Shown piece after piece: positions 1-58,702 of a stretch of DNA of 60,796 nt. Source of the stretch: a virus (Duplodnaviria > Caudoviricetes). Every line of letters begins with the position of its first letter. Positions within the stretch are counted from its first letter, which is position 1. The position numbers and the translations under genes were made by a program. The notes below the pieces were generated by a model. That model saw only the letters and a list, made by a program, of their open reading frames with translations, had not been told where the DNA came from and did no database searches. The stretch is from the IMG/VR virus record IMGVR_UViG_3300030450_002344, positions 1-60,796 of that record; one strand, 5' to 3'.

Positions 1-98
1 TTGCACTAAAGCAAGCGGAGCTAGGTAAGATTATAGCGGCCAGCTCTAACATAATAGAGGCGGTTAATAATCCTGACTATCAAGAACTGCTTAATACT
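1..98. repeat. Terminal direct repeat (copy 1), most likely assembly circularisation overlap
   Basis: 1-98 identical to 60697-60794; a reading frame continues through the junction. Confidence 0.92.
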
Positions 99-350
99 TC
101 GCTGACTCTACATAGTATAGAGGTTACTAAAGGTATGAAACGGGCAGCACTTAACGCGCTATTAGGTAAGAACAAAGGGCTTAAAGGTAATAAGCAAACT
201 CGTAAACAGCTAAGAGCTTTTAAGAAAGCCATTGAACCTTATACAGACCGGCCTGAAATTAAGAATCTAATAGAGATTATGACAGCTAAAAGCCTAGAGG
301 TTTCTGATAATAACTTAGAGGCTGAGGTTACTAGATGGAAGGGGAGGTAG
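1..350 (+). CDS. C-terminal part of a ~433-aa sigma-factor-like protein starting at 59745
   Basis: Frame from ATG 59745 is open across the overlap and in frame with listed ORF 135..350. Confidence 0.8.
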   Translation, partial: ALKQAELGKIIAASSNIIEAVNNPDYQELLNTSLTLHSIEVTKGMKRAALNALLGKNKGLKGNKQTRKQLRAFKKAIEPYTDRPEIKNLIEIMTAKSLEVSDNNLEAEVTRWKGR

Positions 351-436
351 TATATATACAACTATACTATATACTGCTGACTATAATATATCCCGGCTAT
401 AACTATACCGAAGACTTTAAATGCTTCTTTAGAACT

Positions 437-479
437 CTCCCCCGTAGGGGGAGGTCAGCCGGTGTCGCAGTTAAGTGGC
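437..479 (+). promoter_or_regulatory. Double-hairpin element copy A
   Basis: CTCCCCC-GTA-GGGGGAG, 10-nt linker, GTCGC-AGTTAA-GTGGC; same architecture at 2102 and 59501. Confidence 0.6.
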
Positions 480-568
480 CGACGAGCCGAGCACAGCGTT
501 GTGCTTAGGTGAATAAATAATATCTTATGTGTCGGTTTGATATGTACATGGTATGAAAGGAGTTTGAT

Positions 569-793
569 ATGCCTAACATAGATATAGATTACACAGTATT
601 AATCACTGATGAGGGGGAATTCTGTGTAAGGGGCGGGGTATTATATTGTAATAATATCCCTATGCCTTACGTGGATGAACCAGAACAAGAGTTCTATACA
701 CTAGTATCGCAGGAGATTGATAACCTGCAAGAGGGTAAAGATACGGGCAGCTATATAGAAGTTCGTAGAATGCAAGTATGGGAGGAAGCATAA
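569..793 (+). CDS. Small acidic hypothetical protein
   Basis: AAGGAG SD before ATG; TAATG coupling to the next gene. Confidence 0.7.
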   Translation: MPNIDIDYTVLITDEGEFCVRGGVLYCNNIPMPYVDEPEQEFYTLVSQEIDNLQEGKDTGSYIEVRRMQVWEEA

Positions 794-1050
794 TGCCATT
801 CGTAGAGTACGGTAAACATGGGATGAAGCGATGGGTTAATACCTATCAGGTTGGTGATGTAATATACGCTAACCATAAGGCTAAGGGCCTTGAAGATATG
901 GAAGGGTCTTGTGTAGAAACTAAGTTAGTTACTACGCAGGGTTACTGGCCGCCAGAGTACGATAAGAATACAGCCTATCGTATAGTGCAATACTTTAAGT
1001 GTGCTGTATGTGGTGTAGCTATAGAGGATAAGGAGTTTATAGATGGGTAA
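793..1050 (+). CDS. Hypothetical protein with C-terminal CxxC
   Basis: GGAGGA SD, TAATG overlap (start MPFVEY), CAVC motif. Confidence 0.65.
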   Translation: MPFVEYGKHGMKRWVNTYQVGDVIYANHKAKGLEDMEGSCVETKLVTTQGYWPPEYDKNTAYRIVQYFKCAVCGVAIEDKEFIDG

Positions 1051-1393
1051 TTTATACTCACTTCAGTGTGAACTTAATCTAATCGCTGATGGGTTAAAAA
1101 CTTATGAAGACGTTATAGATTTTAATCATGCTGATGAACATACAAAGTCTATAATGGCACAGCTTTGGGACGTATATGTAGAGCCTCCGTCTCAGTCTTG
1201 GTACACATATCAAGGATGTTGGGAAAGTGAGGATGAATTTGCTGCGGATTTAGCAAGTGAAACAGGGTTTCTTGATAGTGATTGGAGTACATACTTTGAT
1301 TATGACCTGTGGACTAATGACTTATTCATAAGTGACTACACGTCATTAGACTGTAGGCAATGTGGTGACTTAATGATAGTGAGGTATGACTGA
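1043..1393 (+). CDS. ardA: ArdA-like antirestriction (DNA mimic) protein
   Basis: Very acidic; YQGCWESEDEFAADL..ETG...YFDYDLW..DLF..DY matches the ArdA C-terminal pattern. Confidence 0.7.
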   Translation: MGNLYSLQCELNLIADGLKTYEDVIDFNHADEHTKSIMAQLWDVYVEPPSQSWYTYQGCWESEDEFAADLASETGFLDSDWSTYFDYDLWTNDLFISDYTSLDCRQCGDLMIVRYD

Positions 1394-2097
1394 TGGAAAC
1401 TAAACGCAAAACAATTAGGATACCTAATACTGGGGCATGGTTGTCTCAGATAGTAATGGATGCCATGGGATACGGAGGTGCTGAATGGCGTAGGTATAAG
1501 ATGCAAGGTATCATACGGTTGGTAACTCGTGATGGTACTAGCAAGCCTGAAGTATGTAGTAGGGCTAGGGATGAGGACTTATGGGTAATGACCGGGACTA
1601 CTGTATATATTGGTAGGTCTATAGAGATTGAAGTATTAGGAGAGATTATGGAAGGCACTGCAAAGTGGACAACAGGTAAGGATGAAGACCAAGCTGTTGT
1701 TACCACGGCGGAAAGAGATAAACTGCTAAGGGATTATTGGAATCATGCTAGGTATGTTAGTCGTGTACAAGAGTTATCTCGTGAGTCTATTAAGCGTATG
1801 CTTGATAAGTCTGAGAAACTAACCGAAGCGATTGTAAATACAGTGTACCCTGCTATTAGGCTTATGGCAGATGGCAGTTGGTACATAGATAAGGAAGGTA
1901 ACGCTCATGTAGGTTACAATCCACCAAAGACAGCTATGATTATGTATAGTCACAACTGGAAATCTAGTGAGAAGTGGGATGACTTCCGTAAGGCAGAGGT
2001 CGCACTGACTGAGGATGTACGGATATACATCCGTAACCATATAGAAGAACTTGCAGATGCTAGAGAGATAGCACACATAGTAAAGTTAATGGCTTAA
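1393..2097 (+). CDS. Hypothetical protein
   Basis: 234-aa ORF, TGATG coupling, GAGG SD. Confidence 0.75.
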   Translation: METKRKTIRIPNTGAWLSQIVMDAMGYGGAEWRRYKMQGIIRLVTRDGTSKPEVCSRARDEDLWVMTGTTVYIGRSIEIEVLGEIMEGTAKWTTGKDEDQAVVTTAERDKLLRDYWNHARYVSRVQELSRESIKRMLDKSEKLTEAIVNTVYPAIRLMADGSWYIDKEGNAHVGYNPPKTAMIMYSHNWKSSEKWDDFRKAEVALTEDVRIYIRNHIEELADAREIAHIVKLMA

Positions 2098-2101
2098 CCC
2101 T

Positions 2102-2146
2102 CTGCCCCGAAGGGGCAGGTCACAGGGTGCCGCAGTTAACCGTGGC
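2102..2146 (+). promoter_or_regulatory. Double-hairpin element copy B
   Basis: CTGCCCC-GAA-GGGGCAG, 10-nt linker, GCCGC-AGTTAACC-GTGGC. Confidence 0.6.
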
Positions 2147-2196
2147 TCGGTGGGGTCACAAAGATAAAAATGATTGGTCAACGGAAGGATAATAGA

Positions 2197-2484
2197 ATGG
2201 CTAAAAGTTTTGTTGAAGTACCACAAGATGCGGTACGAATTAGAGTCGGTGAGAACACCGAGTTGGTTGCTTGGCAATCAGAGTATAATGGGGAGAAGCA
2301 GATTAGCTTCGGCAAATCTACCCAATACAAAGAAGGTGGAGATGTCTACACTAAGATGGCTCCTCCTATCACAGCTTCTACATTCCACATGCTAGTTAAC
2401 CTAGCTAATGGACACCTCTTTGGTGGTGATGTAGATGCTCACGACGGTGTAGCTATTGAGGCTCCACGTCGGGGTGAACGTTAA
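2197..2484 (+). CDS. Putative PC4/YdbC-like single-stranded nucleic acid binding protein
   Basis: AAGGA SD before ATG 2197; ELVAWQSEYNGEKQISFGK..YKEGG..YTK resembles the PC4-fold pattern. Confidence 0.5.
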   Translation: MAKSFVEVPQDAVRIRVGENTELVAWQSEYNGEKQISFGKSTQYKEGGDVYTKMAPPITASTFHMLVNLANGHLFGGDVDAHDGVAIEAPRRGER

Positions 2485-2499
2485 TAAAGTCTAGCAAGT

Positions 2500-3136
2500 G
2501 GGAGCCTACCACCGTCAGGTTCCCCCTTACTAGTGAGATTCTTAATCTATCTCCTCTCGTCCTAGGTTAGGAGTCTCACTAGTAAGGTCTTGATAGCATA
2601 TAACGATTGTAGTTTATTAATTTAACAATTATTATTATTAAGACTTTACTATAGTAAGGCTAATAGGAGATGATCTTGACAGCCATAGCTTATTAGACTT
2701 ACTGCCTCATAAGGGTGGACAAGTAACGTGACTTCCTCACACCCCCAAGTTACTTGTACATCCCTATGAGGTACCATAGTTGCTCCTTATTATGGGACCT
2801 CTAACCATGTTGGTGCTAGGTTGGCAGGTAAAAGGTTTAAGCCATTGGCTGAGTATCCTCACCTGTCGGCCTAGTATTATAGTGGTATGTAAAGGCGCGT
2901 TTCCTGTCGGGTGGGTTTATAAGCACCCTATAAACAACGTAAGAGATTGGCATAAGCGATTAGTACAGGAAGCCAGTCCGCCTTACTCTATTAGTTACAA
3001 GTGGATTCAGTAGTTACTATCCGATGGTAAAATGCCTAGCATGACCTCCGTGGATATGACTAAGGGTGAACTCCTTACCTTTGCTGAAGCGTAGTGCACA
3101 CTAAGGGCGCTGAGGCTGCTACTGGATCCACTTGTA
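2500..3136 (+). ncRNA. Large structured ncRNA or array of about 9 back-to-back hairpin/multibranch modules
   Basis: Stems up to 25 bp whose non-Watson-Crick positions are mostly G-U on the + strand; no credible ORF. Confidence 0.8.
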
Positions 3137-3160
3137 TCTAAAAGAATGGGAGGAAGATAC

Positions 3161-3376
3161 ATGCAAATAGGGATTGAAGCACACAATGATATGACTCTAA
3201 TTGAGATCATACAAGCAGTGGAGGATGGCTTTACTGACGGAGGGGTGGAAATTTCCTTAGAGGAGGAAGTATGTAGACATGACATAGAAGCCATGGCTAT
3301 ACAGATATGGAAAGATATGTACGGAGATTTTGAGATTGATGGTTTATACATCGCAGGTGTAAGGGATAGAGAATAA
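3161..3376 (+). CDS. Small acidic hypothetical protein
   Basis: GGAGG SD before ATG 3161; D/E rich. Confidence 0.7.
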   Translation: MQIGIEAHNDMTLIEIIQAVEDGFTDGGVEISLEEEVCRHDIEAMAIQIWKDMYGDFEIDGLYIAGVRDRE

Positions 3377-3795
3377 TGACTGACTATGCAACAGTAAGAA
3401 ACAAGGTAGAGACAGATGATACTTTAGTATTTGCTGCGGGGCATGAGACCTTAGATGATAGACCGCATAAGATTACTAAAGAACAACTGGATGCTATCCC
3501 TGACTTCATCCTAAGATGGGATGATTATATACCTGTCGATGCAGTACGAGCATGGATAGAGTACCACCAAGATGGACAGAGTGAGATACATGACCAAGGT
3601 TTATTCATAAGTTCTGCTAGTTCAGATGAGTACTTTGCTAAGGTAGTCTATGAGTATGATGAGTCATTAAACAAACTCGATGATGTCTTAGCATTTGCTA
3701 TTGATTGGGAAGTTGTAGCGCATGAGCTACTTAGGGAGGACTATATTAAGTTGGAATACAACGGTAGTAACTATTACTTTAGGAGTGTTGCATGA
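3376..3795 (+). CDS. Second ArdA-like acidic protein
   Basis: C-terminal AIDWEVVAHELLREDY....NG..YYFR resembles the ArdA C-terminal domain. Confidence 0.55.
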   Translation: MTDYATVRNKVETDDTLVFAAGHETLDDRPHKITKEQLDAIPDFILRWDDYIPVDAVRAWIEYHQDGQSEIHDQGLFISSASSDEYFAKVVYEYDESLNKLDDVLAFAIDWEVVAHELLREDYIKLEYNGSNYYFRSVA

Positions 3796-4019
3796 GTATG
3801 GAAGGATTGACTGACAACGGGGTAGCTCCTGAAGAGGGGAACGTAACGAGGGAAGGCTTACTGCTATACCGATTAGAGGGATACTTAAATAAGCTGAGGT
3901 ACTCGTTACAACAATTAGAAGATACATTTGAAGGCACTGACCATGAAGGATTGTTCCGTAACATACAGGACATGTCTGAATGGGTAGAAGAAATAAGAAA
4001 AGAGATTAAGAATGGCTAA
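3792..4019 (+). CDS. Hypothetical protein
   Basis: AGGAG SD; overlaps both neighbours. Confidence 0.65.
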   Translation: MSMEGLTDNGVAPEEGNVTREGLLLYRLEGYLNKLRYSLQQLEDTFEGTDHEGLFRNIQDMSEWVEEIRKEIKNG

Positions 4020-4260
4020 CATTACATTAACAGAGAGCACAATAGAAGAGATAGCATCCGCATTAGAGAGACACTTAGCACCAGCTATTGAAGATCCGGG
4101 TAATATTATTGATTACGACTACGAAATAAATGTCAGTGGTGAAGGTGATGGGTACAGTAATACAGATGTAGACATAACCTTACGTGTTGATGAGACATCA
4201 TTGAAGGCTGTGATAAAAGAGATACTAGAAGATGACTTAGGTGAAAACAGCGACGCTTAA
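4012..4260 (+). CDS. Highly acidic small protein (possible DNA mimic)
   Basis: 82 aa, strong D/E excess. Confidence 0.65.
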   Translation: MANITLTESTIEEIASALERHLAPAIEDPGNIIDYDYEINVSGEGDGYSNTDVDITLRVDETSLKAVIKEILEDDLGENSDA

Positions 4261-4272
4261 GAGGAGGTTGTA

Positions 4273-4548
4273 ATGGGTTGGAGAGCGATGTATCCAAAGT
4301 TTTATGTAGAGTTCTTTAACGAGAATGGACATCAAGCTATCATCGAGATGCCAGATCATATCATCACTGATGCTATAGGAAACTTTGTACAAGATGAGAT
4401 AGATAATGATGACCTGCTACGTGGTGGTAGGTGGCGCTTACTGTCTGATGAAGAGGCCGAACAATGGGAACGTGACCAAGATGATAAGGCTAACCTTTAC
4501 GATGATGAGCGCCAGTATGATAATGAAGACTGGAATTGGGAGAAGTAG
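4273..4548 (+). CDS. Acidic hypothetical protein
   Basis: GAGGAGG SD; D/E/W-rich C-terminus. Confidence 0.7.
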   Translation: MGWRAMYPKFYVEFFNENGHQAIIEMPDHIITDAIGNFVQDEIDNDDLLRGGRWRLLSDEEAEQWERDQDDKANLYDDERQYDNEDWNWEK

Positions 4549-4549
4549 T

Positions 4550-4780
4550 ATGGGTGTAATACATGACACAAATGATAGGCAACTAGCACTTGCTATCTTT
4601 GCAACATTAAATAGAGAAGTAATGGATAGTATAGGACGGCAGGATCCAAAGGCAGATACAGTTAATGAGCTGTTCCAGTATTGGATTCGTCTGTATTATA
4701 AACAGACTACACCTACAACGGAGAAGGTATGGAATTATGTCAGAGATTTACCACGAAGATTGTTTAAACACAATCAATAG
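4550..4780 (+). CDS. Hypothetical protein
   Basis: Likely start MGVIHD just after the upstream stop, GGGAG SD. Confidence 0.55.
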   Translation: MGVIHDTNDRQLALAIFATLNREVMDSIGRQDPKADTVNELFQYWIRLYYKQTTPTTEKVWNYVRDLPRRLFKHNQ

Positions 4781-5489
4781 GTTGAGATGGGAACATGTAC
4801 GAGATAATAAAAAGACTAGGCAGCCTGTCGATTTGGTAGTAACATCACCCCCTTACAATATGAATCTACGTATACAAAATGGTAAGTATCGTAGCCGCCA
4901 GATTACTGAAGAGTTTAGTAATAAGTATGATGGCTTCACAGATAACATGCCGATTGATGAGTACACAAACTTTCATAGCTTAGTACTTGAAAGTCTATTT
5001 GGTATCTCTGACCTAATCTTTTATAATGTGGGCATTGTTACTGGCAGTAAACGTGCATGGTTTAAAATAATTGGAGACTTCTCTAAGTATCTAAAGGAGA
5101 TTATTATCTGGGATAAGGGGAACGGACAGCCCGCTATGCAACAACAAGTATTGAATCGGCGCTCTGAACTTATACTGGTGTTTGATAATGACTATGCTAT
5201 TAGCAGACAGTTTAGAGATAAGGGTACGTTTGAACGTGGTACGTTGGATGATGTATGGAATATAGGTAGGCCACTACCACATGAGAAGGTAGATAATCAT
5301 GCTGCACAAATGCCTGAAGCATTAGTAGAAAGAATCCTCTTGAACTTCAGCGAAGAAGGTGATACAATCTATGATCCATTCATGGGTACAGGTACCACTG
5401 GTGTTGTAGCTAAGAGGTTGAATAGAAAATTCATAGGCAGTGAGCTAGTAAAAAGCTACTACAATACTGCACAAAAAAGATTGGGTTGA
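4737..5489 (+). CDS. Class beta amino-DNA methyltransferase (N4-C/N6-A)
   Basis: IYHEDCL N-terminus, motif IV VVTSPPY, motif I DPFMGTGTT, FIGSEL. Confidence 0.92.
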   Translation: MSEIYHEDCLNTINRLRWEHVRDNKKTRQPVDLVVTSPPYNMNLRIQNGKYRSRQITEEFSNKYDGFTDNMPIDEYTNFHSLVLESLFGISDLIFYNVGIVTGSKRAWFKIIGDFSKYLKEIIIWDKGNGQPAMQQQVLNRRSELILVFDNDYAISRQFRDKGTFERGTLDDVWNIGRPLPHEKVDNHAAQMPEALVERILLNFSEEGDTIYDPFMGTGTTGVVAKRLNRKFIGSELVKSYYNTAQKRLG

Positions 5490-5490
5490 T

Positions 5491-6000
5491 ATGAGTACCT
5501 TTATAAACAAAGAACGTGCTGAATCTTTCACTAATATACTGAATGACCTTTCTGTAAGAGTGTTCGGTAAAGAACCTTCGGAAGCTATACTAGCTGGTGA
5601 ATGCCTAGGTTGTGGCATCACTGTAGATTTAGATTCAATGCACATTGCTAGACAAGAACGCTATGGGATATGTGGTATGTGTAGTGACTGCCAAGCCAAT
5701 TGGTTACCCGCAGAAATCTTTGATTCTCCTCAGAATGAGGAACAGTTGAAGGGACAGTGGGGTGTACCTAAAAGGTTTAAGCAACCACGCTATAAAAAAT
5801 CACGAGAGAAAATTGTACGTGCTATGAAAAAGAATCATCCGTATAAGCCAATTGAAATTGAAGAACGATCTGGCGTAGCAGGTACTACTATCATGCGGCA
5901 CCTAAAAGATATGCAACAGCATAGGAAAGTATCACAAATAGAAGTTTTTGGCAAGGTAATGTATGTAAGATTGGTGGGTATAAAAGATGCAATGTCCTAA
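5491..6000 (+). CDS. Zn-finger plus winged-HTH protein
   Basis: CLGC...CSDC; C-terminal IEIEERSGVAGTTIMRHLKDM HTH-like. Confidence 0.55.
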   Translation: MSTFINKERAESFTNILNDLSVRVFGKEPSEAILAGECLGCGITVDLDSMHIARQERYGICGMCSDCQANWLPAEIFDSPQNEEQLKGQWGVPKRFKQPRYKKSREKIVRAMKKNHPYKPIEIEERSGVAGTTIMRHLKDMQQHRKVSQIEVFGKVMYVRLVGIKDAMS

Positions 6001-11670: not shown

Positions 11671-12219
11671 ATGGCTACAGAAGAAATTGAGGTGTTGGAA
11701 TTGGGTGAAGATCTTCTTGACGCAAACAACGTCTCTGACCGAACGGTCATCTTAGCAGAAATTGCAGGGGAACCTGTGTTTCAAAAGCGAACGATCACTT
11801 ACAACGACAAGGAAACTGGTGAAGAGCGTTCATTCCCTAAAGTGGAATTGAAATGGTCTTACCGCCAGATACACCCTGAAGTTTCGAGTCCTGATCGTGA
11901 CATATACATCAACATTAGTCGAGCGCAAGCTGAAGCGTTGGAAGCAGGTAAGTCTCCATCCATGCATGCCAAGACTGATCTTGGTAGGATAACCAGACAG
12001 TGTTCAGACGCTGGATTGCCGAACCCCGGTAGTTCTGACCTAGTTGGTAAAGTCCTAGTACTTGCATCGTACACTGAGGAATTCCGTGGTCGTACTGAGC
12101 GCAAGTATGATGTGCTAGCAACTGTTGGAAGTGCAGAAGACTTTGACCTTGAGCGTGGCATTGCCATTGTTCAAGACGAAGCTCTTGCATCAAAGCAGCA
12201 AGTATCAGCTAGCTACTAG
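11671..12219 (+). CDS. Putative ssDNA-binding/replication protein
   Basis: Acidic, beta-rich, located in replication module; function inferred from context. Confidence 0.45.
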   Translation: MATEEIEVLELGEDLLDANNVSDRTVILAEIAGEPVFQKRTITYNDKETGEERSFPKVELKWSYRQIHPEVSSPDRDIYINISRAQAEALEAGKSPSMHAKTDLGRITRQCSDAGLPNPGSSDLVGKVLVLASYTEEFRGRTERKYDVLATVGSAEDFDLERGIAIVQDEALASKQQVSASY

Positions 12220-12243
12220 CGAATAACTCCTCCGATTAGGGGG

Positions 12244-12272
12244 TTGCCAAATGTCTGCAGATATGTTATAAT
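12244..12272 (+). promoter_or_regulatory. Sigma70-type promoter
   Basis: TTGCCA-17 nt-TATAAT with TG extended -10. Confidence 0.75.
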
Positions 12273-12284
12273 TATGTGTAGACA

Positions 12285-12448
12285 TATTGGTGACCTCTTT
12301 GGAAGTTATCAAGGATTATTGAGTCTCATACTTACATGATTCCCCAATCATATGAGACAACATTTAAGGTGACGCGAAGGGGGAACTCGCTGAATAAGTC
12401 CTTACGTGCCTAGCACATTCTTGATAGTTTCCAAAGAAGTCATCAATA
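12285..12448 (+). ncRNA. Structured RNA / 5' leader with ~31-bp closing stem and three inner hairpins
   Basis: 12285-12315 pairs with 12418-12448 (G-U rich); inner CCCC and GGGGG loops are complementary. Confidence 0.7.
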
Positions 12449-12457
12449 GGATCAAAT

Positions 12458-13255
12458 ATGAAAACATTATCATACAGTGGCTTATCACTCTTCTCAGAAT
12501 GTCCAGAACGATTTCGACGAGAGAAGATGTCGGATTTGGAACTGGACTACCAAGTCACACAGAATACTGTGCGTGGAACAATCATCCACAAGTTCATGGA
12601 AGACGTTATCAATATATACATCAAGTCTGGAAACTGGCTTGATCAAGATATTGCTATTGAACATATGGAAACAATCTGGAACGAAGGCTTTGATAACGAT
12701 AACGGTGTTAACGTATTAGACACCTGTCCGTGGAACAGTGATTTTCTAGAGAAGTCCATAGAAGATTCAAAGCTACTCGTACCCCAGATGTACGATGAGA
12801 TATTCCCCTACCTAAGTAACCCTATAGCAACTGAACAACATCTTGAGATGAACATCAACAAGAAGTGGAAGCTTCATGGGTACCTTGATTATATGGGGGA
12901 ACCCGCTACAATAATAGACTGGAAGACTAAGACAAGCCCAATGAATGAACGGTGGCTTGACCAAGACTTACAGGCTACAGTATATGCTGCGCTTAGTGCA
13001 TGGGAGAAAGTGTCCGTTCACTTTGTACAGTTTATATTCTTAAAAACAAAAGGCCCACGTATTGTGTGGTCAACAACGAATAGAGATAGGAGGCATACTG
13101 ATTGGTTATTAAATGACATGATACCACAAGTCATTCGGTCACTAGATGAGAAGATTACTCCTCCTACTCCCGGATGGTGGTGTGGCAACTGTCCATTACC
13201 GTGTGATGCATTACCAAATGTGTCAGTGAATGTAGAAAGTTTAACGTATGTATAA
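12458..13255 (+). CDS. Cas4/RecB-like PD-(D/E)XK exonuclease
   Basis: LSYS...ECP, G..IH, GYLD, IIDWKT, Q..VY, C-terminal CGNCPLPC. Confidence 0.88.
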   Translation: MKTLSYSGLSLFSECPERFRREKMSDLELDYQVTQNTVRGTIIHKFMEDVINIYIKSGNWLDQDIAIEHMETIWNEGFDNDNGVNVLDTCPWNSDFLEKSIEDSKLLVPQMYDEIFPYLSNPIATEQHLEMNINKKWKLHGYLDYMGEPATIIDWKTKTSPMNERWLDQDLQATVYAALSAWEKVSVHFVQFIFLKTKGPRIVWSTTNRDRRHTDWLLNDMIPQVIRSLDEKITPPTPGWWCGNCPLPCDALPNVSVNVESLTYV

Positions 13256-31832: not shown

Positions 31833-34800
31833 TTAATCTCTATATCTTGCAAACCTTGGAGTATCACTTGGGTATGAGAAGGTAGGAGAGCGACCATATG
31901 GTGTGAAACTACCTCTACCTCCCAAACCGAGCATTTCCTTAGTTTGATAGATCAATTTTAATGCCTGTACCCACTGTTCAAATGAATAGTTTGTGCCTAC
32001 AGGGAACGTTCTAAACATAGCACGTAACATACGTTCATGGTTACGAGTTAACTTCTGGCTTGGGTTTGTAAAGAAGTTGGTAAGTGCATCTTCAAATGAA
32101 GCATCATGGAATACCATATTGATATGCTTAGATACTTCACTCCATTCAGGTAAGCCACCGACCCCAGAAGTTGTTGGTGCCGCTTGTCTACCACTCGCAG
32201 CAGGTTTAGACCATTTACGAGTAGGCAATGCTACCTTAGTAGGTGTTCTTTCATTTCTCTTACGTCCAGTAGCTATTCCTACTATAGCTGAAAGAGCATC
32301 AATATACTGGAAAGAAGCAATCTTAGCATCTTTATCTGCTACTCCACTTGCACCTGTTAGTCGTAGTAGAGTGGCTACTTCTCTAATGTTTGATAAGTCA
32401 CCATACATTCGACTAATCTGGGGGAACAGACTTTCCCACATATCTTTAATGTCTTCAATATCTGCAACACCGTTTCTTGCAAATGTTTCAAATATAAAAT
32501 CTCCGGGCATAAGGTTCTGTGTCTGCCTGTAATACCGTGAGGCGATAGATGCTTTAATATTTTGGGCCTCTTCAGAAAGTCTAGGGTGTTGTGCTAAATC
32601 ATACAACTGGTACTTTCTACCAATATTCCTCGCATCATCGCTTACTGAAGGGTAACCGCTTTGTGGTTTGCCTCTAATAGTTTGTGGTATACCTGTTACA
32701 TCATCAAATTCAGGTAAATCCATCTCTTCTTCAACAGCAGCTACAACACCTAGTGGCGTTTCTGATTTATCCCTCTCAGCATACATTCGTTTTAAGTGTT
32801 CTGCTTGTTCCCACTTACCAGCGTCTTCTAATTTTTTGATTGATAAAGCTTCTGCAATAATTTTATCTGCGTCCTGTTGAAAGTATTTAAGATATAATTT
32901 GTGTTCATCCAGAGTTGGATCAAGTTTGTTATAAATGTCATAAAGTGATACAAACTTCATAAGTTCTTTGACTTCTAAAGCTGCCTTAAACTCTTCAAGT
33001 GTTTCTGCGTCATAGATTCCAAGTTGCTGGTTTGGTGCCATAAAGTGATACTGTTCATCCCACGGAGCAGCTTGATCAAGGTCGGTTTGTAACCGTGTTA
33101 CCTTCTCATCCCATGCACCATTCTTCATGTCCATATATGTAATGTTCTTTACATCACCAAGTCTTTCTGTTATGTGTTTTACAAGGTCAGATTGTGTATA
33201 CTCATTACGTTCCATCCAAACTTTGCCATACTCGTTGGTCTCCAACCAGTCCATAACACCTTCAACTGTAGGTGGCTTCCACATATCTATAGTAGTTTGT
33301 ACTGAATTTGCCATAGAAGCTACATCTCTAAGCTCACCTTCGTAGATTCCGTTAATCTCTGTTTGTATCTCTCTCATAACAGATTCAATAGCTTTGTCTA
33401 CTATTTGTGGCATACTTGCCGATGAAGCTTCTACTATTTTGTATAGACGGAATTGCTCAGGATCTTTAGCTTCCATCGCAGTTTCCCACTCTTCTACTTC
33501 TTTAAGATATTGGCCCCAGTTGACAATGTTTGTTGTCCTACCATCCTTAGCCACCACAGAGAACTCATCTTTTCTAGCAGTAAATTCTTCTGAGAATAAT
33601 GTAGGAGCTGTCTTACGCTTGTCTTCTCGCATAAGTTCAACAAAGCTCTCAAGCTGCCATGCGTTAAACATGTCTACACTTATAAACCTTGGGTCGTATC
33701 TAACTCCAGTTTTTTCATACTTCCAGTCAGACATGTCTTGTAGAACTTGCTCAACATCTTCTCGTTTTATCTCACGGTACTCACCATCAACGAACAAGGT
33801 GTCCATCACTTCTTCAACTTTGTGTACTCCTGCCATAGGATCATCCGCAAACAATGTCATGAACCATTCATCTTTGATAAGTTTATCGCGTGTCAGTTGC
33901 CTCCATAGTTGCGTAGAACCGAATGAAGTTTTATCCATAATGTGATTCGGGTCAATAGGTACACCACCGACCTCTTCAGGAGATAGACCTACGTTTACAC
34001 CTGTTGTTTCAAATATACGTAACTTAGCTTCTTTAAGTTGTTCATTCTTTCGGTTGTTAACAGTCTCTAAATCTCTAAAGAAGGTCTCATCCATTGCAGG
34101 AGGATCTTGTATTTCAAGTCCAAACTCACTAAGGTTTGGTCTATCTTCACTTCTACCACTTGGTATTGAAGGACGTTCACCGGGAATTGCAGCTATACCT
34201 GCATCGTACTCGGCATTTATATCTTCGGCAACCTGATAGAACATACTCGAAGCTTGTGCACGGTTAATTGCGTTATGTTCAAACTTCTTATTATTCAACC
34301 AGTTTCTTGCCCAAGGTGTTCCCTCAAAGAACTCAGAGTACTTTTTACTCTTTTGTGCTTCAGTTAAAGACCTACTTCTTACAATATCATAGTAGTTATT
34401 CATAACATCCGCAGGATATACTTTTTTACCAGTGGAAGGATCTAAAGTATATTCACGTCCCGGTTTGAAAGAAAACCCTAATAGAAGAGAAGATGAATCT
34501 TGTATACCACGCCTAGAACCTGCCGCCCTTTCCATATCATTATGTACTTGGTTAAGAACAGACATGTCTACTTTCTTACCTGTAATAGGGTCAATAAGTT
34601 CTGCCTCTGGGTCTAGCTTATGTCCAAATATTTTTTGACCAGTATCCCCTATTGTGTGCAATAACGGAATATTTATCACGTTATTCTGTTTTTGACGACT
34701 CCATGCATCCCAAGCAAGAAGAAGCAAATACAACTTCTCATTTGTTTCAGGGTTCGGGTCAGGTGATTGTACCTGTACTTCTCTACCATTCTCATCAATT

Positions 34801-37800
34801 GTAACTGTGTAGTTATTCATTATAGCTGCGTGAGCTGCGTTCATATATGCATAATCAATTTCTCGAATATCTCTGTTTGTTCGGATAAGTTGCGTTGTAC
34901 TAAAAGCTCCCGTAAGACCTGCTGTTACACTCATCGCTGTATCTATAGGACGAGTAAATGAACCAATAGTCTTTTCAAGCTTATCAACGTTCTCACCATA
35001 TTGACCAGTAACAGTCATAGCGGTTGTAATAGCTGGATTAAGTGGTAGCTTAAGCATACCAGAGTACACTTCAGCCATCTTACCTAACCGACTAAAGTCA
35101 TCCATAGCATTTAATGGATCTTCACCAGCTCTAATTCTTCCTCTACCTGATGGGTAGTAATCAAACATGTCATTCCAGAAGAGTACTGCATCAACATTAA
35201 GAGATGCTCCATCTGAGTATTTTTCTGCTACAGAAACCCATCCGCCGGGATCTATGCCAAGCGACTTGGACAAACTAAAGAATGGTTGTAGTGCCTGACC
35301 AATTGGTATATCACGTTGCGCCCATTTTGAGGAACCTAAGTCTCTATTTACATCTCGTATAGATTGTAGGTACTGTGTAACCCTATTTAGTAGCTTTGGG
35401 TTATCCATGAGTGTCATAGCTGTCTTACCAGCTGTACGTGTTTGCCAAATATGCCACGGACCAAGCCACCTAATGAGGTAATCAAGATTACTTGTATTGC
35501 TGTAATCATGTAGAATCCAGTCAGCCTGTGCCTGTGCAAGTTTAGCAGAAGTTCTACGCAGTTGATTAGTCTGTACTTCTAACTCATCCATTAGCGTTCG
35601 TAGTTTGGTTACATCTTCTCTTGATATGACTCTAGCTGGACCATCATCAACAGGTGTGTATGGTTTAGTTCTATCTGCATATGCAGCAGCACGATCTCTT
35701 ATATCACTTACAGCCATACGCTGTTGTGCTCTAGCTTTTTCAAATACTTTCTGCTCTCTAACAAACAGATCAAGAATTTCGTCTCGTGATGTATTAGGTC
35801 GTCCATATATAGGCCAACCTTTATCCCACTGGTCCATCATATAGTTTGAAAGATTTTTAAGAGCACGTCTACGTACAGCTATTTCGTAAGCTAGATTATC
35901 TTTAGTTTTTCGCCTTCTGAACCATGCTATAAACCCTTTATAAACATCTGAGTCTTGATCTTTCAAGTCAGCAATCTCATCAAGAACCTCTTTTAGTTCT
36001 TTTTGTGCAAATTCAGGAGTCATTCTTCGGTTGGTTTGTAATCCTGCTGAACCTGACCATGATACTTGGAAACCTGTCCAGTTCTCAGTACCACGCGATT
36101 CTTGTCGATACTTCCAACCAATCTTCTCGTTATCTTTTTTCAGTCTATCTCGATATTCTGCAAGACGCTTAATACCAGCTTCAATTTCTGCCTCATTAGC
36201 ATCTTTTCTTACAAAAACTGCAAGACGGTTCATAGCCAGCTCACCACTTTGATTCCACGAATCGTCTGTAATAAGGGGAACATACCCATCAGGTGCTTGT
36301 TGCATAGGAACACGCCCATGAACACCTTGTGGTGGGAATTGATCTAGTACAGTACCGTCTGTTCTAGTCTGTGGGTCCATACCAAAGTTCATTGGGAGTA
36401 CTGCTTCATCTCCACTAAATTTTATATGCTTTCCTTCTACAGGATCTGGTAATGTCCATGTGTAATTAGGGTCACTCTTAGCTTTACTTATTGCACGTTG
36501 GGCCGGACCAAATGTACGAGAACGAGTAATATCCTCAGTCTGTCCTCTAGGAATTATCATACGCATAAGAGGTATGCTAAAAGTTCTCCCCTTTGCAGAC
36601 GGTCTTCCAAGAAGACTTTCTAATTGTAGTCTTTTTTCAGGATTAAAGGCATTTTCACGAACATCTTCAAAGTTATTACGACGGGGCATCCCTCGGTAAT
36701 TAATATCTTTACCAAGATCAAACTCTCGTGTCTTATGCATTGGGTCAATCGCTTCTATTTGATCTGCAAAATCATCAAGTAAGTCCGCGTCTAACTCTGT
36801 GTCAAGATATAAACCACTCCAAGCTCTTGCCTCTGCTTCTTTATACTTGCTTAAATTATCTATGAAAGCACCAAGACTATCACTTACAGGTTCTCTTCCG
36901 GGTAGGAAAGGAACTTGATCGAAGGCTTCTGTTGTTCCTCCTGCTGTGTAATCATCATCGAGTTTTCTTTGCCACTTCCGTAAAAAGCCCAATACAGGAA
37001 CTTTTTCTAATAAGATACGATCAAATGCATGTTGACCTTGATCATGCCAAACATCCATACCAGCTTCATCTGCACGACTTATCCCATGCTTACGTCGTAA
37101 GTCTGTTGATTTTGGTTCTAATCCAAGTGCGCTACGAACTTCATTTAATCGATTAATACTATCCTCTATATAAGAATCTTTACCTTGTAGTCTTTTTTGT
37201 ATTGCATCAAGTAGTTTTTCTTTAGCTCTTCTAGCATCTTGTCTAGAATAAACAGATCTAGGACGTGTGTTTCCCCCTGCATTAGATAAGAACTGTTCTG
37301 TTAATACACGTATATCTTCGATGGCTTTTTTAGAAGATTCATTTAAGCTCTTTGCAAGCTCATCAATTTGATCTCTAGTATTTCTTTTAGCAAATGCTCT
37401 TTCTGTTACAGCATCTGCTAGTGTACCTAATTCCTCTCCAAGCTCATTTGCTTTTTCAATTAACTCTTTCTCACTAAGTGGTGGCCTCGTCGGATTCGGT
37501 TCTATTGTTACAAATTTACTCTTTGTTGCAGTACGTTTTGGTTGGAAGAATGTACCATCGTCAATACGTCGTTGTATCGCCATGTTTACATCAGCATTGC
37601 TAAAGGTCATTTTAGCATTTTTAGTAAAGTATTTATTACGGATAAATTGTGCATCTAGTAATTTAGTATCTGAACCGTTAAATAAAATATCCATCAGTGT
37701 TTCATCAATAAGTTTTTCTTTTACAATATCGTCAGCTGTTGCAAAATCTATGCCCTTAATACGGTCATCGAGACGTTCTTTTAGCTGCTTAGTAGGTATC

Positions 37801-40800
37801 GCACCGACGTTGACTTTTGACCCCTGACTTATACTCTCTGCTCGGAATTCTCCAAGAAGTTTTTCTGCGTTAAATGCAGCAAGTTCTATTGCATTTTCCT
37901 CAAAATCAGGATTAATAGCATTATCAATAAATCTTTGGCCCTCAAACGGTTCTCGTGCTTCATCAATTAGACTCTGTATCTCGTTGAATCCAAGCATCTC
38001 ATCGCCATTTTGTATTTGCTCAAACATACTTGCACGTTGTGTAGGGGGAACAAAGTTAAGCATCTCTTCTTCATCAACTGTTCCTAGTTCTCTTAGTCTC
38101 CTTACAAACTCAAAACGCTCACTTCTGTATGTTTCCTTATCTGTCATGATTGTGATAAGGTAATTCTTCTGCTCTTCCATAGCTCGAAGAGGCTTAATGA
38201 GTTCAAGCATAATTTCTTGTGTAGCATCATGGGCAGCTTTGATTGTCTCTTCACTAACAGGCCCAGTGCCGTTATGTAAGTAACCTTTTATTGCATCAAA
38301 CAATCCTTCTTGCTCTTGAGTTCCCCCAAAAAGAGTGAGAATATTTGTAAGTAAGTCATTAGTATCTGGATCTGTAACCCCAATTAGTGTATGATCTTCT
38401 CCAGCAGCTTTACGTGCCTTTCGTAGTACACTTGGATTTGTATCATATGTTACGTCAATACCTGCTTCCATTGCGTCTTCTCGAAGTTCACGAAGAATGT
38501 TGTCATACTCTTCTTTCAAAGTATTCCTAATAAGTTCTGCTGCCTGAAGATTTGGGTCAGTTATAACTTGTACAGTACCATCAGGTAGAACTTTTTCTAC
38601 TGCTCTATGATCAGGGGTATGGTATTTAACACCATCAAGTATTCTATTTATAAGGTCATCTACTTTTGCATCTTCTAGCGCATTAGCGTGAAAACCTAGT
38701 GAACGTATATATGTACGTGCGCTCTGTCTCATTTCTAAGAACGCTTCTCCTGTGTCCGTAACACCTTCTACAATATTAATAACATCATCTAAGTTTAGAG
38801 TTCCCGGTGATTGAACAGCTTCTACCATTGTTTTCCACAATGTGCCATCACCATCTTTAAGGATTTCTATTGATTCTGGACTAATTTGTCTAACTAAGTT
38901 TTCAATTTGATCTTCAGAAGATAATAATCTATACCATCTGTAAGAAGCCGAGTCAATGATGCGCATACGGTCTACAGATTCTGCATAACCTGAAAGCTGT
39001 CGTGCGTACACAAAAGGTAAACCACCACCAATAAGGGCAACACCACCACCCTTAGCTCTAGTAAGTAGTTTTTTCCAACCTTCTCTTTTTTGTACGTTTT
39101 CGTCGGCACCACCGAACATAATTTTCCATGATTTCATAACACCTCTTACGGGTGCAAGTGCTGCCACGTCTACATCAAGCGATGCTCTGGTATGTCCCTT
39201 TACGGCAAGATCCACATCTCCCCAAACACTCTGCCACTGCTTGTCTCGTGCTCTAAGCATATCTCCTCTAGCCATACCATCCATGAGCATTAAGGTTTTG
39301 TTTGTTACCCAGTTTCGCACAGCAAATGCAGGTCGCTCTAAGAATAATTTAGATGTCCAACTATTAATAGCATTTTGTAAGCCAAGTGCTTCACCTGCTT
39401 TTTCATCCAAACCATACCGCTTAAGCATTACATTTTGTGTTTCAAGTTTTACTTCTTCATTAAATCGTGACCACCACTCAGCTGGTGTAAGACCATCAGG
39501 GTCTATATCAGATGGATCGAGACCATTTTTGAGGGAAGGAACCTTATCTAAATCGATATCCTTTAGAATATCCAGTGCTTTACCAGTTTCAGCATGTAAC
39601 TGTGAGCTTATTTTTTTACTCTGTAGCATCATTAAATATGCCATAGGGTCATCTGCTTTACCGACTCTTTTTATTTCCTCAAGTAACTCTCTAACTATAT
39701 TTGCATGATCATGCGACAGAGTTTTTTGGAATCTCGGACCCCAAGCACCAAGCATGGAGCTAAGTTCGTTCATTGTTGTGTAAATATTAGACACCATTCG
39801 GTCTCGTGTAGCGCCCTCTGTTGTTGCACTAAATGCTTTATTTCGTAGCCAACGTGTAGCTTTGAACGCACTATATGTTGATCGCTCTGGCTCTTGTACA
39901 ACATGTTTCAAATCTTCGGGACCAAACTTATTTACTGCACGAAACTCATCAATATTCATTGAAGCAAGTTTTTCAGCTTTGCTCATTGCTTTAGTAATCT
40001 TAAAGAAATCTTTTATGCTGCCGCCAGTATCTATATATTGATCTGCGCGTAATATTGCTTTACCAATATCGTCATAGCCTTTAACTATAAGTTCATCAGT
40101 TGGAGAGTATCTTAGAGCGTCCTCTATTTCATCAGCTAATTTAGTTAATTGGTTAGCTTCATCACCAAACTCAGAGACCTTAGTTGGGAGGGAACCAGCG
40201 TCCACAGTAAGTTTCCCTCTTAAATTTTGTCCTACTCTACCAAGGAAAGTATCAGAAACTTCAACAAGTTCACCTACATCAACTTGTCTTTGTTCTTGTT
40301 TTCTAGTCAGTTGTTTGGGTTTAAAGATTTCTTGGGGACGGCGAAGGGGAATTTTATCGATTCTTCTACGCGCTTTAGGGTCTACGATAACTGCTTGATC
40401 AGCTCTGGTTACGTCACCCATTTGTGCTTTTGAACTAATAAAGTCTTGTTGTGTCTCAGGAGTAAATTTTGGATCCTTTTTAATAACTGGGACTACACCT
40501 AGTTCATCTATTGCTTCTGCCTGTAAATTATCCATAGCATGTGCTTTTTGGCGTAGTGCACTCACAATTGTCTCAGCACTTTTTCTATCAGTTAAATTAA
40601 TACGACCTGTTTCTACAACAGCACGGATAAGTCCGTTCTGAGTAGCACCAGAAACTCTTGACATTCGAGCACCTTTTACAGCCGCTGTGACACCTACTTG
40701 AGCACCTTTTGCTCCTATACCACCGAATACATCAAATAGGTTGAATGTACCGTAAGCAAAACCAGCCCGCATACGTTCACCCATCCCCATTGCTTCGGAA

Positions 40801-54935: not shown

Positions 54936-55011
54936 CGCGGGGTGGAGCAGTGGTAGCTCGTCAGGTTCATTGTCTGAAGGTCGTCAGGTTCGATTCCGGC
55001 CCCCGCTACCA
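54936..55011 (+). tRNA. tRNA-fMet (CAT), atypical anticodon loop and T-stem
   Basis: CGCGGGG/CCCCGCT acceptor with unpaired C1, GAGC/GCTC D-stem, TTCGATT T-loop, encoded CCA. Confidence 0.88.
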
Positions 55012-58474: not shown

Positions 58475-58702
58475 ATGAATTTACTACAGCGATACAGACA
58501 ATACAAGTATGATAGATGGAGAAAAAGGATCTTACCTAGCCTTAACAAGGTAGCAGGTCAAGACTTCGAGACATACGAGCAATGGCAACAATGGTACATC
58601 AAGCAAAAGTTCGTTGATAAGTTTTGGAGAATACACGTTGACCGCGGGCTACACGTTAACGCTGACGGTACACCTGTTAAGGGTGGACACTACGACAGAT
58701 AG
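58475..58702 (+). CDS. Hypothetical protein
   Basis: GAGGAG SD. Confidence 0.7.
   Translation: MNLLQRYRQYKYDRWRKRILPSLNKVAGQDFETYEQWQQWYIKQKFVDKFWRIHVDRGLHVNADGTPVKGGHYDR

Follow-up and report, generated by a model that had tools for sequence, protein, structure and literature searches.

A modular, multi-hairpin RNA with exposed anti-Shine-Dalgarno-like loops in one clade of marine phages

A structured RNA fills an intergenic gap

In a 60.8-kb viral record rated complete (IMG/VR record IMGVR_UViG_3300030450_002344, a phage of the Caudoviricetes; its 60,796 nt are hereafter called the window), we found that the 676-nt gap at 2485-3160 on the + strand specifies a real structured RNA, as seen in its structure, its conservation and its strand. 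The gap extends from the first base after the stop codon of a 95-aa open reading frame (ORF; 2197-2484, +) to the last base before the start codon of a 71-aa ORF (start 3161, +), and the molecule is a new modular, multi-hairpin RNA specific to a single clade. Its hairpin loops expose short C/U-rich words resembling the anti-Shine-Dalgarno (anti-SD) sequence more often than shuffled controls do, and we tentatively read these loops as sites that could pair with Shine-Dalgarno (SD) regions. Few large structured phage RNAs are known, their functions being mostly open, and this one is unusually clear structurally, with a z score of about -11, compensatory changes in its helices and a junction domain that surpasses the neighbouring proteins in conservation.

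The whole gap folds with a minimum free energy (MFE) of -262.9 kcal/mol (z -10.66; 0/20 shuffles fold as well), compared with a z of -5.96 for the antisense strand, and it is the only one with z below -7 among the 15 gaps of 150 nt or more tested in the window. The runner-up, 12220-12457 (+), reaches z -6.5 (-5.68 for the 246 nt of 12215-12460) and contains one long helix of ~30 bp. Over 654 nt, the MFE structure of the window's RNA has some 20 helices, 13 hairpin loops and a 3′ domain with multiple branches. Of its 226 pairs, 31 are G·U; because such pairs would be A·C on the other strand, the folded molecule is the + strand RNA. The shortest relative, L033, also folds better in the sense direction (z -11.0 versus -6.5 antisense). 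A coding role for the gap was rejected, as its sole ORF (2780-3013, TTG start) spans modules that are deleted in relatives.

A different account would place the function in the DNA, with the inverted repeats serving as extruded hairpins for a virion polymerase, as an origin or as a packaging site, or would regard the loops as by-products of composition and MFE folding. The antisense strand is indeed also above shuffles (z -6), as any inverted repeats would be, GC-rich hairpins of another type flank the operon, and C is the least pairable base, so that predicted loops tend to be C-rich. Nevertheless, the sense strand folds far better than the antisense strand in both the window and L033, and invariant G·U pairs and UA/UG/CG swaps, detailed below, would be A·C mismatches on the other strand. 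The loops, moreover, hold more anti-SD-like words than either kind of shuffled control (4-7 unpaired words per tested sequence against 1.0-1.4 in folded shuffles of the same dinucleotide content, and 14 word-bearing loops against 5.2 in composition-matched loop shuffles). A DNA-level reading of the gap is thus unlikely, and the account as a whole, by-product version included, is hardly credible.

Comparison of the whole window with Rfam 15 (including RNAIII, 6C, GOLLD, ROOL and CsrB) at the gathering threshold returned tRNA only. With E up to 10, positions 300-3300 gave only microRNA-type hairpin noise far below the cut-offs, and with E up to 0.5 seven relatives gave tRNA elsewhere plus two microRNA-type rows and one snoRNA row, again far below the cut-offs, and no bacterial or phage RNA family. 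The RNA was not found described in the literature; in the part of an IMG/VR survey available (PMC10690425), 8,495 candidate structured RNAs of 29-151 nt are reported, and pieces of the molecule may be among them.

Relatives were located through the upstream protein together with two conserved DNA words (four IMG/VR contigs) and through a pattern scan of metagenome contigs (17 loci). Together with the window they amount to 16 distinct sequences. Eleven of these, the members of the family in what follows, are full length, spanning 382-654 nt, and lie in marine viral and metagenome contigs. Their flanking proteins are 68-81% identical, and the 3′ domain of the RNA is more conserved. A blastn search with 2000-3400 against 50,697 phage records returned no match, a 652-aa ORF of the phage had none among cultured phages, and the major head protein remained below 60% identity overall to assorted phages (23-31% among the 15 records listed), so that no cultured relative or host was found; a 22-base pattern had 0 matches in species-representative prokaryote genomes.

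A conserved frame carries exchangeable modules

The members have a common frame, which consists of a hairpin H0, a long hairpin H1, a D hairpin and a nearly invariant 3′ three-way-junction domain, with interchangeable hairpin modules inserted into it (all coordinates below are on the + strand). The 3′ domain (2996-3136), defined by an alignment of 13 sequences and RNAalifold, is closed by the 19-bp helix P1 (2996-3014/3118-3136). Within it, P2 (3018-3027/3048-3056) surrounds a variable insert as well as GACCU, the internal loop that belongs to ACCUCC (loop 4), the P3 hairpin (3062-3082) carries the loop ACUCC at 3070-3074 (loop 5), and the P4 hairpin (3083-3116) contains the 16-mer UAGUGCACACUAAGGG, which is invariant in 13/13 sequences. 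RNAalifold assigned 39 pairs to this domain, four of them changed on both sides across P1, P2 and P3, and P1 alternates between UA, UG and CG at one position and between UG and UA at the next.

Upstream of this domain, H0 (2500-2524; GGGAGCCUAC / GUCAGGUUCCC, with a C-rich loop) is found in 11/11 members, with a variable loop or insert. H1 (2526-2586) is a predicted perfect helix of 24 bp whose apical loop, UCUCCUCUCGUCC at 2550-2562, is loop 1; it is found in all members except L010, where another long hairpin takes its place, and its tip is hypervariable, with 15-74 nt between the conserved arms. Two positions of H1 change from U-A to A-U in 6/10 relatives, and the same pairs (2534/2578 and 2540/2572) co-vary in a population contig that retains the loop. 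In L007, L026 and L017 the H1 tip holds one or two copies of a ~21-nt unit (GUAUGUACGGACU...), so that the copy number of this unit varies among relatives. The D hairpin (2804-2886, core 2812-2878) is a long helix with a variable apical part, for which RNAalifold gave 17 pairs over nine sequences, four changed on both sides and two invariant G·U; in L010 it was not found by the anchors used. A further hairpin, H2, aligned in six sequences, has 10 pairs, including one that is G-C in three of the sequences and A-U in the other three, and its loop CCCUCUC is invariant in 6/6. Compensatory or G·U-preserving changes thus support the pairing in each helix examined (3′ domain, D, H2 and H1).

The inserted modules differ between close relatives. 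The stretch 2587-2700, present in the window and L005 only, contains an AT-rich hairpin (2587-2644), two small hairpins (2646-2684) that hold AGGAGAU at 2665-2671, and an arm (2688-2700) that pairs back to 2487-2499; positions 2652-2704 are skipped in L020 and in a contig of sequencing run X20. It is followed by the long hairpin H4 (2703-2773), whose apical loop is CUUCC (2732-2736) and whose internal loop is ACCCCC (together loop 2), and by the 7-bp hairpin H5 (2774-2795), with the loop UGCUCCUU at 2781-2788 (loop 3), both found in 3/11 members (window, L005 and L020). An optional insert, CCUGUCGGGUGGGUUUAUAAGCACCC... (2889-2986), is common only to the window and L010, is absent from L005 and L020, and is missing from a contig of run X20, in which 2878-2986 is skipped; contigs from public runs thus display the same presence and absence of modules inside natural populations. 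Part of this insert, TTCCTGTCGGGTGGGTTTATAAGCACCC... (2901-2933, or 2901-2938), also occurs with unrelated flanks in a different contig of run X3, 4,644 nt long and about ten times as deep, so this short hairpin motif may occur in other genomes.

Four of the helices reach 19-24 bp or more (H1, 24; H4, 23; D, 27; P1, 19), those of H1 and P1 being perfect and those of H4 and D having bulges. RNase III substrates have about two turns of uninterrupted double helix, a length attained by the predicted helices of H1 and P1. The RNA might accordingly be read as a module for processing or stabilizing messages, in which cleavage at RNase III helices would divide the operon transcript into individual messages whose 3′ ends are protected by hairpins, the loops being incidental. 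Consistent with such a module, the element fills the entire gap from stop codon to the next RBS (ribosome binding site), no intrinsic-terminator-like site was found within 1-6000, and the helix tips are freely exchanged. A length of 380-650 nt with an invariant junction domain is, on the other hand, far beyond what a cleavage site needs, the cleavage is only predicted, and the loop motifs are kept while their stems vary, contrary to incidental loops. We judge this explanation unlikely.

The near-invariance of the 3′ domain invites another explanation, namely that the RNA is a large folded particle that acts as a scaffold, or as a decoy, for a protein of the phage or the host (the 95-aa protein as a PC4-like binder, ribosomal protein S1 or a host defence sensor), the function residing in the invariant 3′ junction and the overall architecture and the pyrimidine loops being protein sites or tertiary loop-loop contacts. 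The 3′ domain surpasses in conservation the 68-81% identity of the flanking proteins, the 16-nt segment of P4 and the ACUCC loop are both invariant in 13/13 sequences, and inserts are tolerated at helix tips, as expected for peripheral elements of a folded core. As read from the sequence, UCCUU of P3 could also pair with AAGGG of P4; no tertiary pair, in contrast, is backed by covariation. The RNA always lies beside the 95-aa gene, which adjoins it in all four IMG/VR relatives located through that gene and was also read upstream of it in L026. The AlphaFold2 model of the 95-aa protein (four strands and a helix) resembles PC4/Pur-alpha-type binders, yet it is weak, with a pLDDT of 60.4 and PC4-like single-strand binders as best Foldseek rows at a best E of 8.8e-3, and binding is only a prediction. 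Such a particle would also leave unexplained why anti-SD-like words recur rather than any pyrimidine run; three loops beat composition-matched shuffles in the pairing described below. On balance we hold this explanation to be doubtful, although it deserves attention.

Anti-SD-like words are enriched and exposed in the loops

The initial annotation had pointed to five anti-SD-like sequences in this region, UCUCCUCUCGUCC (2550-2562, loop 1), ACUUCCUCACACCCCC (2731-2746, loop 2), UGCUCCUU (2781-2788, loop 3), ACCUCC(G) (3044-3050, loop 4) and ACUCCUU (3070-3076, loop 5). All five lie where it placed them and are mostly unpaired, with ensemble probabilities of 0.69-0.94. The partition function gave mean unpaired probabilities of 0.92, 0.76, 0.94 and 0.72 for loops 1, 2, 3 and 5, and of 0.69 for loop 4, where the scored interval (3042-3048) begins 2 nt before the named motif. 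Loop 4 is only in part a loop, GACCU forming an internal loop and CCG being paired, and loop 2 is split by a weak 4-bp mini-stem (GUGA/UCAC) into the CUUCC loop and the ACCCCC internal loop.

We counted CUCC, CCUC and UCCU as anti-SD-like words and GGAG, GAGG and AGGA as SD-like words. The window's RNA contains 17 anti-SD-like words against 8.8±3.2 in 500 dinucleotide shuffles (P 0.022), and seven are fully unpaired against 1.42±1.22 in 60 folded dinucleotide shuffles, none of which reached seven. The folded-shuffle test covered four of the 11 members, and the other three gave the same direction: 6 versus 1.4 in L023 (0/60), 5 versus 1.1 in L033 (2/60) and 4 versus 1.0 in L006 (2/60). A lack of enrichment over shuffled controls had been named in the initial annotation as evidence against its idea; the words are enriched, also over folded shuffles.

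Pooling the 11 members, we counted 103 anti-SD-like words, 48 of them fully unpaired against an expectation of about 10-17%, and 41 SD-like words, 1 of them unpaired; the members are related, however, and these counts are therefore not independent. Similarly, 14 of 59 distinct hairpin loops hold an anti-SD-like word (5.2±2.0 in composition-matched shuffles, P 0.0005), again not as independent counts, because 7 of the 14 are variants of one homologous loop; SD-like words occur in 0/59. C makes up 32% of the loop bases and G 9%. Enrichment and exposure of the words are thus observed features of the RNA.

Taken singly, the loops are mostly not conserved. Loop 1 is found in 2/11 members (window and L020), and loops 2, 3 and 4 are restricted to the window, L005 and L020 (3/11). 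By contrast, ACUCC of loop 5 is invariant in 13/13 sequences while its stem switches between C-G and U-A, and CCUCUC is found in exactly one copy in 10/11 members and fully unpaired in 8/10. This hexamer changes place, lying in the H1 loop in the window and L020 and in other hairpins elsewhere (H2 in six members). The eight members other than the window, L005 and L020 have C/U-rich loops of their own, such as CCCUCUC in H2 and the D-hairpin tips ACUCCUUUC, AUCUCCAA and CUCCUC. The property of having C/U-rich loops thus persists across the family despite module swaps, and exposed anti-SD-like loops that persist in this way are a testable property.

An internal kissing interaction between loop 1 and AGGAGAU (2665-2671), offered by the initial annotation as another option, did not hold up. 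The AGGAGAU segment is mostly paired, in a stem (unpaired probability 0.36). L020 retains loop 1 but lacks the segment, L005 has AGGAUAU in its place, and loop and segment do not co-occur in relatives.

Resemblance to the 3′ tail of 16S rRNA could have a meaning of its own, the loops mimicking that tail and either titrating a factor that recognizes it (a maturation factor, a nuclease or a toxin) or competing with the 30S subunit for SDs. The window and L005 each contain 5 six-letter stretches of what we take to be the canonical 16S tail motif (P 0.012 and 0.006) and L020 contains 6 (P 0.008), where shuffles have ~1, and most of these are unpaired. In the remaining eight members, on the contrary, the number is only 1-3 (P 0.07-0.46), and CCUCUC, the motif that persists most, differs from the canonical tail. 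We consider tail mimicry very unlikely.

Candidate targets and a tentative mode of action

As candidate targets we used 68 phage translation-initiation regions (TIRs) from crude gene calls; canonical SDs (GGAGG, AGGAG or GAGGA) precede most phage genes. Three short loops paired with the 68 TIRs better than 200 composition-matched shuffles of themselves, namely UGCUCCUU (P 0.02), GACCUCCG (P 0.01) and GAACUCCUU (P 0.025). The pairing with RBSs that the initial annotation's proposal of occlusion implies was thus supported for the short loops, whereas the two long loops and the search for a specific target, given below, did not support it.

The reverse complement of loop 1 matches GACAAGAGGAG, upstream of the ATG at 58475, at 10/11 positions, just as the initial annotation had reported. 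We nevertheless rejected gene 58475 as a target of particular note: it ranks first for loop 3 (-12.7 kcal/mol) yet outside the top four for loop 1, and loop 1 does no better than its shuffles.

Two matches connect the loops with the RBS just downstream of the RNA. The H1 loop of the window and L020 (2549-2559) is an exact 11-nt complement of CGAGAGGAGAU, which is the downstream RBS in L007, L023 and L026 and is absent from the window's + strand, and CUUCCUC of loop 2 is complementary to GAGGAAG at 3150-3156 in the window's own RBS, GGGAGGAAG. The first, a single case, hints that loops and RBS variants may have travelled together and then been split by module exchange.

From these observations, and by analogy with cuckoo RNAs, occlusion of RBSs appears plausible. 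The RNA would be made as part of a polycistronic message of the small-gene operon, and its G-poor, C/U-rich loops (CUCCUU, ACCUCC, CCUCUC and CUUCCUC) would base-pair with purine-rich SD regions of the gene just downstream, of other phage genes or of host messages. Such pairing would occlude ribosome binding, as has been proposed for the C-rich loops of cuckoo/CcsR RNAs, while the perfect helices of 19-24 bp would be likely RNase III sites, separating the flanking cistrons and releasing hairpin units. We put this forward as a tentative model that may well prove wrong, in its pairing as in its processing, and that we still prefer to the others considered here.

A number of observations speak against the model or lend it nothing. 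The two longest loops pair with the 68 TIRs no better than their own shuffles (P 0.23 and 0.195), no specific target stood out among these TIRs, and a match to purine-rich SDs is to be expected of any C/U-rich loop. For the downstream gene, the RBS region is not favoured, ranking 2nd-28th against the 68 TIRs in the 10 usable members (L022 excluded), and in the nested MFE structure the downstream SD is unpaired. Word totals rise above dinucleotide shuffles in three members, the window, L005 and L020; in the other 8/11 they do not (P 0.10-0.62), and the signal in those eight is therefore the placement of the words, not their number. Close relatives have gained or lost single loops: L005, for example, has a flanking protein 99% identical to the window's and yet neither loop 1 nor any CCUCUC, with a different 40-nt insert at the site. 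An anti-SD role does not explain the near-invariant 3′ domain (the P4 16-mer and P1), and the AAGGG of P4 offers the ACUCC(UU) loop a possible alternative partner within the molecule, no covariation being available to decide. No listed RNA sequencing run contains the stretch, a result that is uninformative either way, also for the battery of small RNAs envisaged in the initial annotation.

A bolder version may also be entertained, in which this new class of large modular phage RNA would be a multivalent 'Shine-Dalgarno sponge' or 16S-tail mimic, made in bulk at the onset of infection from an anti-restriction operon, its loop modules reprogramming ribosome loading of host and phage messages and its 3′ domain docking to a host or phage factor; we regard it as speculative and improbable. 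Should the loops block RBSs, the RNA would be a phage version of the cuckoo/RNAIII principle at infection onset; otherwise its invariant 3′ domain is still the mark of some RNA-protein or RNA-RNA interaction in marine phages that are abundant and uncultured. With a small family of one clade and no host found, the immediate reach is limited.

Comparison with known RNAs

In the portions of the sources available, cuckoo RNAs are described as 2-4 adjacent hairpins of similar size with variable stems and the anti-SD-like motif CCUCCUCCC in each loop (PMC4615179), and CcsR RNAs as lying in the 3′ UTR (untranslated region) of a gene for a small RNA-binding protein (DUF1127), from which they are processed (PMC8034643). 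Judged by these portions, the cuckoo RNAs (CcsR1-4 with RSs0680 in Rhodobacter, and the C14/NfeR1 group in Sinorhizobium) are the most similar to the phage RNA in its proposed working, both having compensatory stems and pyrimidine-rich anti-SD-like loops. The position is similar too, as the phage RNA lies directly 3′ of the 95-aa gene, whose predicted fold is like that of a nucleic-acid binder. Unlike the cuckoo RNAs, however, the phage RNA has CCUCCUCCC in 0/11 members, and there is no copy on the + strand within 2485-3160 even with one mismatch; its upstream gene belongs to neither DUF1127 nor another Pfam family; it is 380-650 nt long with a three-way junction and long perfect helices instead of 2-4 small hairpins; and it is carried by a phage, whereas cuckoo RNAs are chromosomal in Alphaproteobacteria. 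Membership in the cuckoo group was therefore rejected, for want of CCUCCUCCC and DUF1127 and because of the larger, branched architecture.

Other multi-hairpin RNAs differ in their loops. Staphylococcus aureus RNAIII, RsaE and actinobacterial 6C are small RNAs with several hairpins whose C-rich loops pair with G-rich RBS regions, and RNAIII, at ~0.5 kb, is also multi-domain. The phage RNA has multiple hairpins with C-rich loops as well, but it gave no Rfam match (E up to 10), its loops are CU-mixed (CUCC/CCUC) rather than UCCC/CCCC, and host group and context differ. Sponges of the CsrB/RsmZ type expose GGA in many hairpin loops. The phage RNA likewise repeats one short motif in the loops of a multi-hairpin RNA, yet its loops have 9% G and its repeated words are roughly the complement of GGA; with GGAG, GAGG or AGGA in 0/59 loops, a CsrA/RsmA sponge was rejected.

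Phage RNAs and phage processing sites offer further parallels. Phage T7 has RNase III processing hairpins between its early genes, each site being a single ~60-nt hairpin with an internal loop. The phage RNA studied here resembles these in having long double-stranded helices between operon cistrons, but its helices number at least 8, its loop motifs are conserved and its junction domain is invariant. With GOLLD and ROOL, as far as the available accounts describe them, it has in common that it is a highly structured, phage-carried non-coding RNA of several hundred nucleotides; it differs in having no Rfam match (window and seven relatives), in its smaller size, in its exchangeable hairpin modules and in giving no sign of multimeric assembly.

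Neighbouring genes and other features

Among the neighbouring genes, the 95-aa protein matched no Pfam (E up to 0.1) or PHROG family. The best structural neighbours of its model were PC4, Sub1, a T5 PC4-like protein and Pur-alpha, all with weak E-values, and the protein might, on this model, bind single-stranded DNA or RNA. Its distant relatives amount to one cluster at 50% identity plus fragments, other matches being short repeats in large proteins. An ArdA-like antirestriction ORF (1043-1393, +; Pfam PF07275, E 2.3e-6, 28.8 bits against a cut-off of 27) belongs to the same operon, ~1.1 kb upstream of the RNA, and a second ArdA-like paralogue, considered at 3376-3795, was rejected (E 0.68).

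Directly 3′ of P1 (3137-3163, +), a short stem, GUAUCU/AGAUAC, brackets the SD of the downstream 71-aa gene in the window and confines it to a small loop immediately 5′ of the ATG; in relatives the stem is GUAUCUA/UAGAUAC and the SD comes after it. The RBS GGGAGGAAG with the ATG (3161) occupies 3148-3163 (+), and relatives of a second type have (C)GAGAGGAGAU at this site instead.

Upstream of the 95-aa gene, a GC-rich hairpin at 2102-2118 (+) has a 7-bp stem and the 3-nt loop GAA, and a twin with the loop GTA lies at 437-453. These are the only two intergenic hairpins of their kind; they have a common downstream motif, GTCA..GCAGTTAA, and no U-run follows them. Relatives retain a hairpin at the 2102-2118 site with a different stem sequence (CACCCC/GGGGTG; CTCTCTCCC/GGGAGAGAG). 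Judged from sequence only, both look like promoter or terminator elements.

N4-like phages read their early genes from DNA-hairpin promoters by means of a giant virion RNA polymerase. Such promoters have, according to the available part of a report on LUZ7 (PMC9163698), a short stem and a 3-nt loop and stand upstream of early genes. By sequence alone, the hairpins at 437-453 and 2102-2118 resemble this type in their 7-bp stem, 3-nt loop and common downstream motif. An N4-like identity was nonetheless unsupported: the 3757-aa ORF (31833-43109, -) had no Pfam, PHROG or PDB sequence match, its only homologues were four metagenomic proteins (29-97% identity), and the leads from a protein atlas, to 'large polyvalent protein' domains, were weak, with scores below 0.9. 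The 'pre-early phage mRNAs' of the initial annotation presuppose a phage of the N4 type, and because the 3757-aa ORF shows no detectable likeness to known families or solved structures, we do not call the phage N4-like or the transcript pre-early. The phage also carries one tRNA gene, a tRNA-Met (anticodon CAT) at 54936-55011 (+).

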